Of a DNA stretch of 64,000 bases, positions 51,342 to 62,412 are shown one piece after another. The DNA is taken from contig CAXXVO010000005.1 in assembly GCA_963422645.2 (NCBI GenBank), positions 96,001 through 160,000 of the forward strand, read 5' to 3'. Source of the stretch: Alphaproteobacteria bacterium (GTDB lineage Bacteria > Pseudomonadota > Alphaproteobacteria > UBA828). Positions within the stretch are counted from its first letter, which is position 1; each line of letters starts with the position of its first letter. The translations under genes and the position numbers were made by a program. The notes under the pieces are model-generated. The model was given only the letters and a program-made list of their open reading frames with translations, was not told where the DNA came from and did not search any database.

Positions 51342-53220
51342 GTAACTGCCCAGGTTCTTGCTGTGAAAATTCTCTGGGATTCGGCACAACGCTACCCACG
51401 CGACGCCCGTGTGCTCCTCTGTGGTCGCCGGGTTTCACAGCTCACGATGCCCCTCTTGCGGACTGCGACCGGTAAGCTACCCCGATGTGGCCCGAAGTCC
51501 GCCCGCGCGACGGGCACCGATTTTCATTCTATGGGGTGGTCCAGCACGGCGTCGACCATGATCGTTTATGAGAATGGCTCCGCTGTTGGAGAACCCGTGC
51601 CAGGTGAGCTTACGCGCACTTGACGGTGGCGATGAGCCGATCCGATGGGCTGGTCAGGGCTTCGATGATATTCCAGCCCTGCTTTCTGGCGGTGGTGATG
51701 ACGCTGCGCAGGATGGCGAAGTTCTCGGCCCCCTGCGCGGACCGGAAGCCCCCGGAGATCTTCTGGCGCAGCTTCATCATCCGAAGGTCGCGCTCGGCCT
51801 CGTTGTTCGTGAACCCGACCTCGAGGTCGATCAGGAACCGGAGCACCGCGCATTTGTGGTCGCGCAGCCTCAAGGCCAGATTGTGACCGATCCTTCGCTT
51901 CCGGCGCTTCTTCCTCTTGCCAGGCGAGAACGGTGGTTGGCTCTCGTGAAAGGCCAGCGCATCGGCGATGATCTCGTCGTATCGGCGCTCGATCAGCGCC
52001 ACAAGCCTCGCCGGAACGGCGATATCCTTGTCCAGCGCGATGCGGGCGGCGCGATTGGCTCGGCGCAGGAGCTGCTGCATCCGCCGGGCCCAAGCCTCCC
52101 CTTCGATGTCCACCAGCGCCTGCAACTCCCGCAGGTGATGGGCGTTGCACAGGCCGTGCTCCACCCCTTCCATCGCGAAGTACGGCTTCCAGTGATCGTG
52201 CACGACGATGCCGGAGACACCCGAGAGCAGGGCGCCGCGCTTGCCGCTGACCCGGTACGCCGCCAGCAGCGGCGTGCAGATCACATGAAGCCACTGCGTC
52301 TGACCGCCGATCCGCAAGCCGGTCTCGTCCATGTGTTTCACCCGCGCCGTGCCCGCCGCCAGGTCCTGTATGTGCAAGGCCGCGTCCCGCAGCCGCTCGG
52401 CCGCCCTCTCGCTCATCGTCGCCAACGTCGCAGCCGTCACCGGCGCGCCGAAGAGCTCGGCCATCACCTGCGACAGCCGATCCTCCGGCAGGAAGTGAGC
52501 GTGCTGAAGGTAGACCGCCACCCCGGCAATGCGCGGGCCGTACTGCACCGGCGCCGACACCCCGTCGGGGAACGCCGCCCGGGTCACCGTCCCGCAATGC
52601 CCGCAGCACTTGGCATGCGCCCGGTGCTCGGTCACCTCCAGGGGGCTCGGCTCGGGCAGATCGAACACCTGGCGGGCGACGGGCGTTCCCGCCCTGGCCG
52701 CGTCCGAAAGCGGCGAACCGCATCCCTTGCAGGAAGCCGGGACGTGATCCTTCACCCGATCCGGGTGATCGGCGCGGCGCAGCGTCTTGCCCTTGTGGCC
52801 GGGCTGGCCACCGGGCTTGCGGCCCGATTTGCCGCGCAGGCTTCGGGTTCGCCGCTTCGAATTCGGCTTCCTCAGCCCATCGCTCGAAGGCGGCTTGCCG
52901 CTGTTGAGGCCGAGACGGCGCTCCAACTCCTCGATGCGCTCGACGAGACGCGCGACTTGCTCTTCCAGCCGCGCGTTCTGCTGCCGAAGCCAGGCATTTT
53001 CCTCCCGAAGCCGGGCGTTCTCCTCCTCCAGGCGGGCGATCTTCTGCGCGGGCGTTTCGGGCGCTGCTCCCGTCGAAGGGCCGCGCGGCGACTCGGGATT
53101 GCTCATGTCGTTGTTGAGTCATTTCCCGAAATTCCCGTCAAGCCCTTTCCACCAACTCCGAACGAGAAACGCCTCAATCCACTGGCCCAAAATGACAAAT
53201 CAGACGACCTGGGCAGTTAC
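51342..53220 (-). mobile_element. IS66-family element (single ORF, no passenger gene)
   Basis: TIR GTAACTGCCCAGGT; duplication TTCTTTCT (51334-51341, 53221-53228). Confidence 0.95.
51610..53106 (-). CDS. tnpC: IS66 transposase
   Basis: KPPSSD, GGQPGHKG, HMDETG, CNAHHLREL, FTNNEAERDLR. Confidence 0.95.
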   Translation of the reverse strand: MSNPESPRGPSTGAAPETPAQKIARLEEENARLREENAWLRQQNARLEEQVARLVERIEELERRLGLNSGKPPSSDGLRKPNSKRRTRSLRGKSGRKPGGQPGHKGKTLRRADHPDRVKDHVPASCKGCGSPLSDAARAGTPVARQVFDLPEPSPLEVTEHRAHAKCCGHCGTVTRAAFPDGVSAPVQYGPRIAGVAVYLQHAHFLPEDRLSQVMAELFGAPVTAATLATMSERAAERLRDAALHIQDLAAGTARVKHMDETGLRIGGQTQWLHVICTPLLAAYRVSGKRGALLSGVSGIVVHDHWKPYFAMEGVEHGLCNAHHLRELQALVDIEGEAWARRMQQLLRRANRAARIALDKDIAVPARLVALIERRYDEIIADALAFHESQPPFSPGKRKKRRKRRIGHNLALRLRDHKCAVLRFLIDLEVGFTNNEAERDLRMMKLRQKISGGFRSAQGAENFAILRSVITTARKQGWNIIEALTSPSDRLIATVKCA

Positions 53221-53473
53221 TTCTTTCTTCATCAGCAAACGAAGCGGACGCAATCAGCACGCTGCCCAGAATTGTCGCCGATGCGACCGTGGCTCTAATC
53301 AAATGCTTCATTGGTTCCTCCCAGTTGACATTCGACCTCCGAACGTATGTGGCGTGAGGTCCAATTGCTCTCGCATTCAGCCATAGAGGAAAGGGGGGGG
53401 ACTCCCCACCATTTGTAAAGAGGGCTCCGGCACGCGCGAGTAGGCGTGCTTGGCACTCTGTGTGGTTTCTGCG

Positions 53474-54727
53474 TCACGCTGCATGGGCTTGTCTCGCGAA
53501 GGCGGGATTGAAGACGGTCTGGTTTTCGAGCATCGCGCAGGCGACGCCGAGCAGGCGGTCGGCGACGCCGCGAAGTGCACGAGCGTGGCCGTGGCCGCGG
53601 GCACGCAGCGCGGCGTATTTCGCCTTGCTGACGGGGTCGTGCTGTATCGCGACCCCGGCCCAGTGGTAGACGGCGTCCTGGAGCCGGTTGTGAGACGCGA
53701 GACGTCGTATGACGATGAGCGACTTGCCGGACCGCTTGGTCACGGGAGCGACGCCGGACAGGCATCGCAAGGCCTGGTAGTCTCGCCGGCGCAGAGGATC
53801 GTGTGCTTCTGCGAGCAGCGTGGCGAGGACGATCCTGCCGACGCCGGGAAGCGAGCTCAGGATTTCCACGTCACGCTGCGCATTTGTTCCCGGCTCGTCC
53901 TCCGGGGAGGCTGCCGATCGGGACAGCGTTGCGCTCAGACGGTCGAGTTCGCCATAGGCCTTGGCGAGCTGCTGCGCGATGACGGCAAGCTGCGAGAAGA
54001 CGACCTCGATATGAGCGACTGCGGCCTCGGTCGTGCCGGGTGCGACGGACACCGCCTGCTCGCGCATGATCCGGAGCGCGGTTTCGGCATCGATCCGGCG
54101 CACCCGATGGCGCTTCAGGAGCTTGGCGACGGTGGCGGCGCGGACGCGCTGCGCCTTTGCGGGCGTCGGCGCAAGGCACCAGAGCTCGCGAACCCAGGCC
54201 CTGGTGAGATCGCTTTCGACCTTGAGGAGCTGCGGATAGTAGCGCCAGAGCTGCTGGCGGGCCCGGTTCACCAGCCGGGTCCTGTCGCGGGTCAGGTCGT
54301 TGGCGATCCGCGACCACTCGCGCAGCTCGACGATCTCCGGCGCTGCCGGGTCCAGGCGCCGGAACGCATGGCCATCGGTCCGCAGGGCATCGGCGAGCAC
54401 GCGGGCGTCGCGGCGATCGTCCTTGGCGCCGGCCGGCGAGAAGCGGTCGCGGAAGCGGTCGAGCTGCTTCGGATTCACGGAGTGGACCGTGAAGCCGCGT
54501 TCCATCATGGTCTCGACGACGGGTCCGTGCGGGATCTCGATGGCGACCCCGATCGCGTGCGGGTCGACGCCCGCCCTGGCGAGGATCCAGGCCGCCATCT
54601 CTGCGAGACCGGCTCCGCCGTGACTGAAGGCCCGCTCGGCCGACACCTCGCCAGCGCTGTCGACAACGCAGACCTGGTGGGTCTCCGAGCCCCAGTCGAT
54701 CCCCGCAAAATACTCAAGCATGTGCAT
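53474..54727 (-). CDS. IS110 DEDD recombinase
   Basis: GIDWG, AIE, KDDRRDA, SLPGVG, GVAPVTKRSGK. Confidence 0.95.
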   Translation of the reverse strand: MHMLEYFAGIDWGSETHQVCVVDSAGEVSAERAFSHGGAGLAEMAAWILARAGVDPHAIGVAIEIPHGPVVETMMERGFTVHSVNPKQLDRFRDRFSPAGAKDDRRDARVLADALRTDGHAFRRLDPAAPEIVELREWSRIANDLTRDRTRLVNRARQQLWRYYPQLLKVESDLTRAWVRELWCLAPTPAKAQRVRAATVAKLLKRHRVRRIDAETALRIMREQAVSVAPGTTEAAVAHIEVVFSQLAVIAQQLAKAYGELDRLSATLSRSAASPEDEPGTNAQRDVEILSSLPGVGRIVLATLLAEAHDPLRRRDYQALRCLSGVAPVTKRSGKSLIVIRRLASHNRLQDAVYHWAGVAIQHDPVSKAKYAALRARGHGHARALRGVADRLLGVACAMLENQTVFNPAFARQAHAA

Positions 54728-54759
54728 GGCATTCCCTTCGCGCCCTTGTGCAAACGGAC

Positions 54760-54920
54760 CGCCACGATGCCTTCCCGTCCCTGTACTGGCGCTCAAGGCG
54801 CAAACTCCCCACCAGGCGTCCATCGTGGCCAGGGACCGAGGCACAGGTCCCCCCCAGGTGCTCTCGGCGCAGGGGGCGCTCGGTTGCTCTCGATCCCTTG
54901 GCCCGTCCCGTCCGCAATGG
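54760..54920 (-). ncRNA. Predicted bridge RNA target- and donor-binding loops
   Basis: Four segments match the element's own junction and its target site in the expected order; boundaries are approximate. Confidence 0.7.
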
Positions 54921-55185
54921 ACGGGACTGCCACGATGGCAGGGAGCTTCGATGAGCTGCACCTGGCCACTGGCTTCCCCTCCGCGCTACGCGCTCCGGCG
55001 AAGCCAGTGGCCAGCCAGCACTGCTGCGATGAAGGTCGAGGAAATGGCTAAGCAACGTCTGCACCCCGAAACGGCTGAAGCGTCATGAGAGGTACAGGGG
55101 GGCAAGTTCGCGAGAACAGATCACGACGAGGTGCCGTCCAGTCGGCGGTCCTCGTCTCGGGCAATTCTCCTCAGCCAAGCCGGCG

Positions 55186-56183
55186 TGTCGACGGCGGAGG
55201 AATAATGCACCACGCTGTGGGACACGACCCGGTCCGGTCGCGGCGACGCAAAATTTCGCCACCCATGGCCCCTTGTCGGTAGTGTCGAGGGGCGGGGGAT
55301 GTACGGCGTGGAGATCTATGCGGCGGTTCGTCTGGCGGTTGTCGATGAGGGTCTGAGCCATCACGAGGCGGCGCGGCGGTTCGGCATCGACCGGCGGACG
55401 GTGAAGAAGATGCTGAGCTATTCGGCGCCGCCGGGCTACCGCCGGACCAAGCCGGACGGGTTCACCGGCATCATCGATGCGATCCTTGTCGCGCGGGACG
55501 CGCGCGGAGCGCACGATGAGGCGGACAGGGATCCGGATGTGCCGCGCAAGCAGCGGCACACGGCGCATCGGATCTTCGAGCGACTGCGGGACGAGCACGG
55601 GTTCACGGGTAGCTACACGATCGTGAAGGACTATGTGCGGTCCCGCCGGCAGTCGACGCGGGAGGCCTTCGTTCCGCTGCATCACCCGCCGGGCCATGCC
55701 CAGGTCGACTTCGGCGAGGCGGTGGTGAAGTTGCGGGGGCAACGCGAGAAGGTCGCCTTCTTCTGCCTGATCCTGCCCCATTCCAATGTCTGGTTCGTGA
55801 AGGCCTATCCCCGGGAGACGAACGAGGCCTTCCTCGACGGCCATGTCAGCGCCTTCGCCTTCCTCGGCGGGGTCCCCCGATCAATCCTGTACGACAACAC
55901 GACGCTCGCGGTGGTGCGGATCCTGGGCGACGGCACCCGCCGGCGCACTCGTGCGTTCACGCATCTGCAGTCGCACTACCTGTTCCGCGACCGCTTCGGC
56001 CGGCCCGGCAAGGGCAACGATAAGGGCAAGGTCGAGGCTCTGGTGAAGATGGCGCGCCGCAAGTTCCTCGTGCCGATCCCGAAGGTGCACGACCTGGACG
56101 TTCTGAACGAGCGGCTGGCGGCACGTTGCCTGGAGCGTCTCGATGTGCTGGAGCAAGGCGAGCGGGCGGCGGCGCTGTTGGCC
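55186..56183 (+). pseudogene. istA: IS21-family left end and truncated istA
   Basis: TGTCGACG end; RKQRHTA.RIFERL, GHAQVDFG, LYDN, NDKGKVE; C-terminus and istB are missing. Confidence 0.85.
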
Positions 56184-56590
56184 GAGGCGGCCGGCATGAT
56201 CCAGGAATACGAGGCCCGGATCACGGCGCTCGAGCGGCTGGTCGGCAAACAGGCCCTGGAGATCGAGTTCCTAAGGGGGGCTCAAAGGCAAGGACGGCGG
56301 TCGGGAAGCGCGCCCATGTCCGTCATCACTGGCCCGAAGAAGGGCTCTCCATCGCCGAAGGATGCCGACTGATGGGGATAGCGCGCTCCACCTATTACAG
56401 GGAACCGGAGGGATCGGCCGACGACACCGCCCTGGTAGAGGCCATGCACGCGATCAAGGACGAGTTGGAAGCCTATGGCTGGCGGCGCATGCAGGTGGCG
56501 CTCAGGCATCGGGGCTGGATCGTGAACCACAAGAAGATCCAACGCCCGATGCGCGAGCATGCCATGCAGCCGCCGCGCCGGCGCCGATTC
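56184..56590 (+). pseudogene. IS3-family orfA end / orfB start fragment
   Basis: LERLVGKQALEIEFL; CRLMGIARSTYY...YGWRRM...VNHKKI. Confidence 0.8.
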
Positions 56591-57134
56591 TACCACGCTG
56601 CTGGTGCTTCGGCAGCGTGCCCGAGGTCGTCTCACTCAGTGGTGTGACAACGGTCACCCGTTCAAGAGTATGACCCGGGTCGCGATCGGCGTTTGACATT
56701 GATGGCAGGGGCGATCTGCCCCGGACCTCGTATAAGAGACTGACTCTTTGCCAAGCGACTCCTGCTGCCGAAGCAGTTCTGGCCGGTGAGCTCGCGTCGG
56801 GTCCGAGAAGGCTTGGCGATGGGCCCGGAGAAGGACGCAGCGCGTGCCGCCTAGAGATTTTCGCTTTGGCGGGCGGGGGCGTCTGACCTGATCGTCGATA
56901 TTGCCTTGGCCTCGCCAGCTGGCAAGTCACCCGGCGGCCTTTTGATCTTGCCGCAATGCACATGAAATAGTAACTGCCCAGGTACCCCCTCTCTCTTATG
57001 GAACAAGCCAGTTCCTTTTGCGTCAACGCCCCCACGCCGCGGGGGTGCCTACTCTCTTGAGCGCGAGAGGATGATGAACGCCGCGTCGCGAACAAGATGA
57101 GAGGACAGCGATACTCAGGATGAGCCGGAGAAGT

Positions 57135-60920: not shown

Positions 60921-61604
60921 ATGTATGACGCGATCGTTGTGGGGGCACGGTGTGCCGGCGCCTCTCTTGCGATGCTTCTTGCGCGCAAGCGCTACCGCGT
61001 GCTGCTCTTCGATCGGGCGACCTTCCCGAGCGATCAGACCATGTCGACGCATCTCGTCTGGCAGAACGAGACCAATCGTCTGCGCAAGTGGGGCTTGCTC
61101 GACAAGGTCGCCGCATCGGATTGTCCACCGATGTCGTCCTTCATCATCGACTTCGGGGCTTTTTCGCTCGCCGGCGAACCGCCTCCGCTGGACGGTCAGA
61201 AGCACGCGTTCGCTCCGAGACGCTACGTGCTCGACAAGATCCTGGTCGATGCCGCCGGGGAGGCCGGCGCCGAGGTCAGGGAGGGCTTCTTCGTCCGGGA
61301 TCTCGCAGGCGACGGCGACCGCGTGACCGGAATTGTGGGAACGGACAAGACCGGCTCCACCGCAAGAGAGACCGCCCGGATCGTCATCGGTGCGGACGGC
61401 ATGAACTCGCTGGTGGCGCGCGCGGTGCGGGCGCAAGAATACAACGCGAAGCCGCGGCTCCAAGGCACCTACTTCACTTACTGGAGCAATGTGCCCGTCG
61501 ACGGTGTGGAGTTCTACGTTGGGGAATGGCGAGGGGCATACGCCATGCCCACCAACGACGGCATGACGGTGGTCGGCGCGAACTGGACCGCTCGGGATGG
61601 GTAG
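60921..61604 (+). pseudogene. FAD-dependent oxidoreductase, 3'-truncated
   Basis: VVGARCAG, PRRYVLD, IGADG; the C-terminal GDA motif half is missing. Confidence 0.8.
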
Positions 61605-61728
61605 CCTACGACAAGGCGAGGGGGGCCGAGATCGTGTCCCTGGATCTGCCGAACGGGGTGCTGGGGGCGCCGATGACCTACCTGCTCGACGGCGTGCAGC
61701 ACATCGCGTTGACCGTCGGGGGGGGGGG
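61598..61728 (+). pseudogene. C-terminal fragment of a PQQ-dependent dehydrogenase-like gene
   Basis: VAYDKARGAEIVSLDLP...GAPMTYLLDGVQHIALTVGG. Confidence 0.7.
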
Positions 61729-62240
61729 ACTCCCCACCATTTGTAAAGAGGGCTCCGGCACGCGCGAGTAGGCGTGCTTGGCACTCTGTGTGGTTTCTGC
61801 GTCACGCTGCATGGGCTTGTCTCGCGAAGGCGGGATTGAAGACGGTCTGGTTTTCGAGCATCGCGCAGGCAACGCCGAGCAGGCGGTCGGCGACGCCGCG
61901 AAGTGCACGAGCGTGGCCGTGGCCGCGGGCACGCAGCGCGGCGTATTTCGCCTTGCTGACGGGGTCGTGCTGTATCGCGACCCCGGCCCAGTGGTAGACG
62001 GCGTCCTGGAGCCGGTTGTGAGACGCGAGACGTCGTATGACGATGAGCGACTTGCCGGACCGCTTGGTCACGGGAGCGACGCCGGACAGGCATCGCAAGG
62101 CCTGGTAGTCTCGCCGGCGCAGAGGATCGTGTGCTTCTGCGAGCAGCGTGGCGAGGACGATCCTGCCGACGCCGGGAAGCGAGCTCAGGATTTCCACGTC
62201 ACGCTGCGCATTTGTTCCCGGCTCGTCCTCCGGGGAGGCT
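61727..62240 (-). mobile_element. IS110-family element 2, partial copy interrupted by the Mu-like element
   Basis: Matches 53399 onward (one substitution seen) and is cut at ...GGAGGCT|TGTAG. Confidence 0.92.
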
Positions 62241-62412
62241 TGTAGCCGGCCGAAAGTCTTTGCGAATCGCGGCCGGAAGTCTTTGCGAATGGCCTGGAAA
62301 ATCGTCTGGTTTTCGGGGCTGAATCGGGCTGGAAAAACCGGCCTGTGCATGGGCCGTGAAGGAGCGCTGCGCGGGGGGTTCAGGGCCCGTGCACGGGCGG
62401 TGCGTGAGGGTT

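Follow-up and report, generated by a model that had tools for sequence, protein, structure and literature searches.

How an insertion sequence chooses its sites when these are runs of a single base is the question raised by an element in an alphaproteobacterial genome, which we found within the 64,000-nucleotide stretch of DNA that was analysed (contig CAXXVO010000005.1 of assembly GCA_963422645.2, positions 96,001 to 160,000; hereafter the window). The non-coding left end of this element contains four guide-like segments on the minus strand: GCGCCCCC (54879-54872), GGGGGGG (54855-54849), TGGTGGGGAGT (54814-54804) and GTACAGGG (54786-54779). An earlier note, made from the letters alone, had read these as the bridge RNA of an IS110 element, ordered like the guides of IS621 and with a target loop set to a C/G homopolymer. 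The segments, both of the element's ends as well as a second run of 11 G all lie where that note placed them; TGGTGGGGAGT is indeed identical to the right end at 53401-53411, and the GTACAGGG segment is complementary to the left end at 55092-55099. Our analysis indicates that this is very probably an IS110-group bridge-RNA element whose target loop reads a C tract and whose core is CC. What is directly observed comprises the protein family, the RNA fold, the match of the guides to ends and flanks, the co-variation of guides and flanks across lineages, and C-rich sites that pre-exist the element.

The element occupies 53401-55096 (minus strand, 1,696 bp), starting with TGTACC and finishing with GGGGAGT. 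Copies of 100% identity stop at these boundaries, and the same ends are present in relatives with unrelated flanks; within the window alone, the left end could be placed one C to either side, and the TGTAC start is taken from the unoccupied sites of relatives. The genome of the window (G000) contains three copies that are 100% identical over their remaining parts, of which only the one in the window is intact, while another on contig C16 is cut at nucleotide 1463 and a 3' remnant is again found in the window. A tblastn search of the whole genome returned no relatives beyond these three copies, and a megablast comparison of the element with plasmids gave no match. Another genome of the same genus (G041) contains two copies at 94-95% identity. 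The truncated copies (L002 from 2964 onward, contig C16; window 62241-62300) are cut by unrelated DNA, probably the ends of other mobile elements. The location is an IS-rich stretch (window 51566-53300 and 55299-56650): by reading of the translations, the minus-strand ORF at 51610-53106 is presumably an IS66-type transposase, the plus-strand ORF at 55299-56372 is presumably an IS21 IstA-type protein, and an IS3-type OrfB presumably starts from ~56126.

Within the window, TGGTGGGGAGT is found three times (53401-53411, 54804-54814 and 61729-61739; shuffle expectation 0.02, with 0 of 100 shuffles reaching three). The left-end sequence CCCTGTAC is found at 55092-55099 (minus), with its reverse complement at 54779-54786, and six occurrences in total compare with 0.82 expected. 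Four more CCCTGTAC sites (window 9844, 28261, 48195 (+), 59599 (-)) were examined as possible left ends and rejected, as none continues as one.

The left end is long and non-coding (369 nt, 55096-54728), the right end is short (73 nt, 53473-53401), and the termini TGTACC and GGGGAGT form no inverted repeats. This agrees with the published description of the IS110 group as having a long non-coding left end, a short right end and no long terminal inverted repeats (PMC11208160). Elements of the IS1111 group share the DEDD recombinase and RNA-guided site choice, but are described as carrying their seekRNA or bridge RNA in the right end; because the RNA here lies in the 369-nt left end and not in the 73-nt right end, the element belongs with the IS110 group. 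The encoded recombinase (417 aa) matches the Pfam domains PF01548 (E 3.6e-35) and PF02371 (E 7.4e-16) and the NCBIfam model NF033542, "IS110 family RNA-guided transposase" (171 bits, cut-off 140). Its GID, IE, D..D and SG motifs align with the DEDD and Ser-Gly residues of IS621, whose roles are described by Hiraizumi et al. 2024 (PMC11208158), and by these motifs the recombinase is an IS110-family DEDD/Ser protein. Similarity to characterized members is remote, both for IS621 (E 1.5e-6, over two short stretches) and for ISCro4 (PDB 9t56; E 1.7e-5).

Table 1. Coordinates of the element's features in the window; the RNA, its guides and the promoter motifs are predicted.
Feature	Position	Strand	Basis or remark
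Recombinase gene, 417 aa plus stop	53474-54727	minus	Intact ORF (54727-53477 without stop)
Scaffold of the bridge RNA, 167 nt (5' stem-loop followed by target-binding and donor-binding loops)	54761-54927	minus	RNAalifold, 37 sequences
5' stem-loop GUCCCGUCC-AUUGC-GGACGGGAC	54905-54927	minus	Single-sequence folds; outside consensus pairs
Left target guide (LTG), GCGCCCCC(U), 5' side of first internal loop	54871-54879	minus	
Right target guide (RTG), GGGGGGG (54849-54855) plus A at 54848	54848-54855	minus	
Left donor guide (LDG), UGGUGGGGAGU plus UU opposite core	54802-54814	minus	Identical to right end 53411-53401
Right donor guide (RDG), GUACAGG plus G	54779-54786	minus	Reverse complement of CC+TGTAC at left end
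Long near-perfect hairpin	54962-55014	minus	Inverted self-match and fold
Left flank C6: left target C4 plus CC core copy (55098-55097)	55097-55102	minus	
Right flank C8: CC core copy (53400-53399) plus right target	53393-53400	minus	
-35-like TTTACA	53414-53419	minus	13 nt from right end
-10-like TACCTC in left end	55089-55094	minus	17 bp from -35 across predicted circle junction
3' remnant of second copy	61729-62240	minus	Element nt 1188-1699 of 1,699-nt query
C11 tract (G11 on plus strand) adjoining remnant right end	61718-61728	minus	

To establish the fold, relatives were collected by scanning one genome per species. This search uncovered 189 encoding stretches, from which 79 loci with 41 distinct upstream regions were kept; L062 and L072 were unalignable and L057 was too short, and the final alignment comprises 37 sequences. 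In the consensus fold there are two stem-loops, and the internal loop of each encloses a small inner hairpin. Across its 30 pairs, 95.8% of cells are paired, compared with 30-49% when the partners are slid, a percentage that is inflated because the structure was derived from the same alignment; compensatory changes, whose counts are inflated less, are found in 19 of the 30 pairs as against 4-10 in the slid controls, and none of 500 shuffles reaches the observed values. Among the relatives the first loop is variable and the second almost constant, with a conserved LDG and a near-invariant GUACAGG. The same division between a variable first loop and a conserved second loop is described for IS621 orthologues (Durrant et al. 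2024, PMC11208160). A search of Rfam 15 (E up to 1) gave no match on the left end or the RNA, and two weak unrelated matches elsewhere.

The long hairpin of Table 1 sits in an insert of ~130 nt that separates the left terminus from the bridge RNA and is present in the window clade only; left ends measure 229-254 nt in more distant relatives, compared with ~370 here. This insert may serve as a leader or processing site, or may be a small insertion. In two Vicinamibacterales relatives, a matching right end lies ~2-2.3 kb past the recombinase gene (at 6060 in L053 and at 5757 in L067), which points to elements enlarged by additional DNA. The length of the G run in the RTG also differs between relatives, from 7 to 13 (10, 9 and 13 in L046, L048 and L051 of OY729512.2; 8 in L070), and at 54849 a contig from run X1 has one G fewer; the run seems to be subject to homopolymer slippage, or else to assembly error.

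In the mechanism that we propose, the 5' non-coding end would encode a bridge RNA of ~167 nt that has two internal loops. One of them, the donor loop (UGGUGGGGAGU / GUACAGG), would recognise the element's own joined ends, ...GGGGAGT-CC-TGTAC..., as formed by excision to a circle, while the target loop (GCGCCCCC / GGGGGGG) would recognise a C tract of ~11-12 bases preceded by G. Recombination would then take place at the CC core and leave the core on both sides of the insert. Single bases of the guides may contribute in further ways. The core positions of the LDG read UU, so that only G.U wobble pairs would be possible with the core, and the third G of the RDG (54779) and the A at 54848 sit at the positions of the handshake guides described for IS621 (Hiraizumi et al. 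2024, PMC11208158). By this analogy both are candidate handshake guides, which would match the C at position 7 of the target and the T at position 7 of the donor.

In the published scheme for IS621, the two left guides repeat the DNA sequence, the LTG that of the left target and core (top strand) and the LDG that of the right end and core; the two right guides are complements, the RTG of core and right target and the RDG of core and left end (PMC11208160). The window RNA fits this scheme both in guide order (LTG, RTG, LDG, RDG) and in strand. The intact copy is flanked as TTG-C6 / TGTACC ... GGGGAGT / C8-TTT, such that G-C6 faces GCGCCCCC(U) and C8 faces G7. The left flanks of four close copies end in C5-C7, and every element end in G000 and G041 touches a C run. 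The LTG of the window lineage reads GCG-C5, with G before the run at the intact copy and A at the C16 copy; in the lineage of G041/L026 it reads GCA-C5, and 3/3 left flanks have A followed by C5-7. Where the RTG contains at least seven G, the right flank starts with C7-C12 in 9 of 11 elements, and the other two read C5-T-C3 and C5-A-C2.

The guides of relatives with other target loops match other flanks. A sister element with 84% protein identity and the same ends has GGUGAGG in place of GGGGGGG, and 18/18 of its right flanks read CCTCACC. These 18 copies (L029-L042, L044, L049, L084 and L099, chromosome OZ220750.1) all adjoin CCTCACCC, and 16 of them lie inside a dispersed repeat reading CCTCACCCYNNYCCTCTCCCC. 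In other lineages, CCUUUUC-type guides are found with CCTTTTC flanks, CCAGCCG with CCAGCCG, and CCTTGTC with CCTTGTC, and the left guide UUGCCCACC is found with TTTGCCCACC flanks. For a comparison across lineages, we took one representative per distinct guide loop and dropped lineages whose end was not found inside the locus. The right-flank prefix match to the RTG averages 6.42 for a lineage's own loop and 3.06 for the loops of other lineages (19 lineages), and the left-flank suffix match to the LTG 5.64 as against 3.10 (25 lineages). None of 10,000 permutations reaches the observed match for either guide, figures that overstate independence because the lineages are related. This co-variation is the decisive evidence, drawn from sequence comparison, for reading the loops as guides. 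Together with the fold covariation and the matches of guides to ends, it bears out the identification of an IS110 bridge RNA with IS621 guide order, and the counts for the poly-G guides and for the sister element speak equally for a target loop set to the homopolymer.

One alternative is that the protein, or the structure of G/C-tract DNA, picks the site, and that the RNA-like complementarity is a by-product of, for instance, promoter or leader sequences. Poly(dG).poly(dC) is known to have an unusual structure, which would speak for such a choice. The abstract of a 2026 preprint also describes a sequence-plus-structure logic for another IS110 element. We nevertheless regard this explanation as very unlikely, given that both halves of the target guide co-vary with the flanks, over 19 and 25 lineages, that the fold carries compensatory changes, and that the recombinase belongs to a family shown to be RNA-guided.

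The exact boundary of the element, and with it the core, was read from relatives whose targets are not homopolymers. CC stands at the end and start of all flanks in all lineages examined. A Bradyrhizobium relative is found in its occupied site as TTTGCCCACCC / TGTAC...AGGT / CCTACG, and 40 of 45 unoccupied repeats read TTTGCCCACCCTACG, three having CC and two another base. For a Vicinamibacterales relative, 6/6 unoccupied sites read GTCACCCGGAGG, and the occupied site reads GTCACCC / ... / CCGGAGG. A 2-bp duplication of CC is thus seen in two relatives (40/45 and 6/6), and is unreadable in the window since the target is a homopolymer. In G045, a single unoccupied-looking site, identified with a pattern from the L060 lineage, has CC where CCC was expected. 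These data support a CC core, as had been proposed from the window sequence. A left end at C-TGTAC was considered and dropped, as the unoccupied sites of the Bradyrhizobium and Vicinamibacterales relatives place the start at TGTAC.

Because only CC is duplicated in the relatives, the element starts with TGTAC, and from this start, assigned by homology, the predicted circle junction is GGGGAGT-CC-TGTACC and the target of the intact copy TTG-C12-TTT. The junction GGGGAGT-CC-CTGTAC, suggested in the earlier note, has to be replaced accordingly, and of its reconstructed target, TTG-C11-TTT, the homopolymer stands while the length becomes C12 after the one-C shift of the boundary. No circle joint was seen in the contigs, which came from three RNA libraries and a further run.

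The C tracts themselves could in principle belong to the element or be made on insertion, as terminal homopolymers or by untemplated addition. Such an origin would agree with the contact of every end in G000 and G041 with a C run, and with differences in run length from copy to copy, which slippage or addition would produce. Against it stand relatives that share these ends but whose flanks are no homopolymers and fit the guides of the element concerned; in relatives only CC is duplicated, and C-rich sites exist without the element. In G041, an occupied site reads TA-C5 / element / C11-GTTGCCGGCTG, and a tandem paralogue 1.2 kb away is empty and reads TA-C12-GCCGGCTG, upstream of a second periplasmic-binding-protein gene. 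The two sites (L132/L127, contig C9, ~200990-204640) belong to tandem Peripla_BP_4 genes, each with a C11-C12 tract ~25 nt before the ribosome-binding site, of which one is occupied; the orthologous region of G033 is without the tract. The C16 copy, with CA-C5 to its left, interrupts a VTT/DedA-type gene, and the closest orthologue (94% identity) reads TTCA-C6-T-C4 at this point, from which it follows that a strict homopolymer is not required. Finally, an RNA-library contig joins 53400 to 55123 through a 9-base run and 19 other letters that resemble the left flank, which is the empty form of the intact copy's site; this is one contig of depth 3.5, related but not identical in sequence. These C-rich empty sites show that the tract is what the element targets and not something that it brings along, and an origin of the runs in the element or in its insertion is extremely improbable.

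The lengths of the empty runs differ from prediction, with 9 in place of 12 in the spanning contig and 12 in place of 14 in the paralogue, a mismatch that we put down to homopolymer instability, assembly error, or the comparison of different loci and strains. For the remnant, none of 20 genomes of the genus has an orthologue of the flank (61400-61717) that reaches the run; matches begin 119 nt away, and this copy yields no empty site.

Long C tracts are scarce in the host genome. G000 (5.9 Mb, 67% G+C) contains 34 C/G runs of at least 8 and five of at least 10, compared with 144 of at least 10 expected under an iid model, and two of these runs touch right ends of the element, a contact that exceeds chance. 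Four unoccupied runs of 10-12 bases (C19:103397-103408, C9:147498-147507, C9:457199-457208 and C10:116010-116019) are candidate free targets; the unoccupied C12 run lies ~22 nt upstream of an ATG. By a rough test of codon composition, 10 of the 13 runs of at least 9 in G000 lie outside coding-like frames. Of the insertion sites with readable context, that of the intact copy is intergenic, upstream of a small ORF, that of G041 is intergenic, and that of the C16 copy falls in Thr-Pro-Leu-Pro codons. The suggestion that runs of Gly codons might be the target therefore finds no counterpart at these sites, two of which are intergenic and the third in Thr-Pro-Leu-Pro codons of the VTT/DedA-type gene; phase-variable sites, the other example proposed, are likewise an unsupported idea. 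The remnant abuts the 11-G run at 61718-61728 as first described.

Expression of the RNA may depend on circularisation. A promoter search of the left end found no sigma-70-like site inside it, and one in the flank at 55191-55164. The right end contains the TTTACA (53419-53414) to which a -35 role had been ascribed, and a TTGACA-like hexamer (at least 4/6 matches) is found 13-14 nt from the right end in 23/23 representative relatives, which favours that assignment on motif grounds. Across CC plus TG, this -35-like hexamer would stand 17-18 bp from TACCNN in the left end. TAnnnT is present at the -10 position in 13/23 relatives, and the window copy lacks the final T (TACCTC, weak). The circle junction of IS621 is described as rebuilding a promoter for the RNA (PMC11208160), and by analogy the arrangement TTTACA-17 bp-TACCTC may drive the RNA here. 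RNA-library contigs cover 54758-54908 (one difference) and 54568-54781; these contigs are without strand or ends, and DNA carry-over is possible.

It is conceivable that the element is of this kind but that its copies are now inactive, as fossils in an IS-rich island that are silenced by guide self-pairing or by a weak junction promoter. Other DNA cuts short two of the three copies, the window copy has a weak -10-like hexamer and, within its target loop, an inner stem with a C.A mismatch, and the four long runs stand unoccupied. Moreover, a homopolymer target makes the LTG and RTG complementary to one another, and in the minimum-energy fold predicted for the free RNA five C of the LTG are paired with five G of the RTG. 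Against this, identity among the copies is 100%, the ORF has kept its full 417 aa, and the RNA-library contigs reach across 54758-54908 with a single difference, subject to the same possible carry-over. We consider such inactivity unlikely, though well within consideration.

Compared with IS621 of E. coli, as far as it is described in PMC11208160 and PMC11208158, the window element shares the DEDD/Ser recombinase, an RNA in the long left end, a 5' stem-loop followed by the target and donor loops, the order and strand logic of LTG, RTG, LDG and RDG, the inclusion of the core in the pairings, and a -35 box in the right end. It differs in its core, which is CT with a near-invariant T in IS621 but CC in all lineages examined here, and which places it outside the IS621-like orthologues as published. 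Further differences are an RTG of 7 nt including the core in place of 4, a homopolymer target in place of a REP sequence, the extra ~130 nt with a long hairpin in the left end, and the UU at the core positions of the LDG. With only remote protein similarity, it is not a close orthologue of IS621. The ISCro4 / IS622-type bridge recombinases (PDB 9t56; 10.1101/2025.05.14.653916) have in common with it, by their descriptions, the family and domain layout, and here too similarity is remote. ISPpu9 and ISPpu10 are described as targeting REP sequences, and the OZ220750.1 sister and the Bradyrhizobium and Vicinamibacterales relatives are likewise found in dispersed repeats; the window element, likened to these two by description, has instead a rare homopolymer target and a low copy number.

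Large-scale prediction of bridge RNAs and of guide-target concordance has already been published (PMC11208160), and the kind of element is therefore known. A full-text search of the literature found no report that ties IS110 or bridge RNA to homopolymer or poly-C targets; Supplementary Data 2 of Durrant et al., a list of the natural target motifs for each guide pair, may hold such elements. The known mechanism is unchanged by these results, which support an ordinary IS110 element with a guide naturally set to long C runs and, as far as sequence can tell, relatives with other guides at correspondingly different sites.

Of the 39 distinct relatives, 14 have an RTG of G7 or longer; the records bear the labels Alpha- and Gammaproteobacteria, Acidobacteria and Chloroflexota, which are uncertain because most are metagenome bins. 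Poly-C targeting is therefore a habit of the clade rather than an isolated case. In the 79 retained loci, poly-C targeters number at least 1-3 per genome, and the relatives that target repeats at least 6-18. We tentatively suggest, as a possible if doubtful history, that homopolymer programming is an old and self-limiting state of the clade, in which self-pairing of the guides and the scarcity of tracts (five of at least 10 bases in 5.9 Mb) would keep the copy number low, and from which two substitutions (GGGGGGG to GGUGAGG) would have put the sister element on a dispersed repeat, with at least 18 copies.

Because the bridge RNAs of this clade combine a single donor loop with many different target loops, they form a natural series that can be used to test the rules of pairing outside IS621: the CC core, the 7-nt right target guide, the U opposite the core G, and the would-be handshake positions. 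A homopolymer target raises in addition the ambiguity of register and the self-pairing of the two target guides. For the biology of genomes, the result is an insertion sequence confined to very rare sites, with a near relative that has spread through a repeat family after two changes of its guide.
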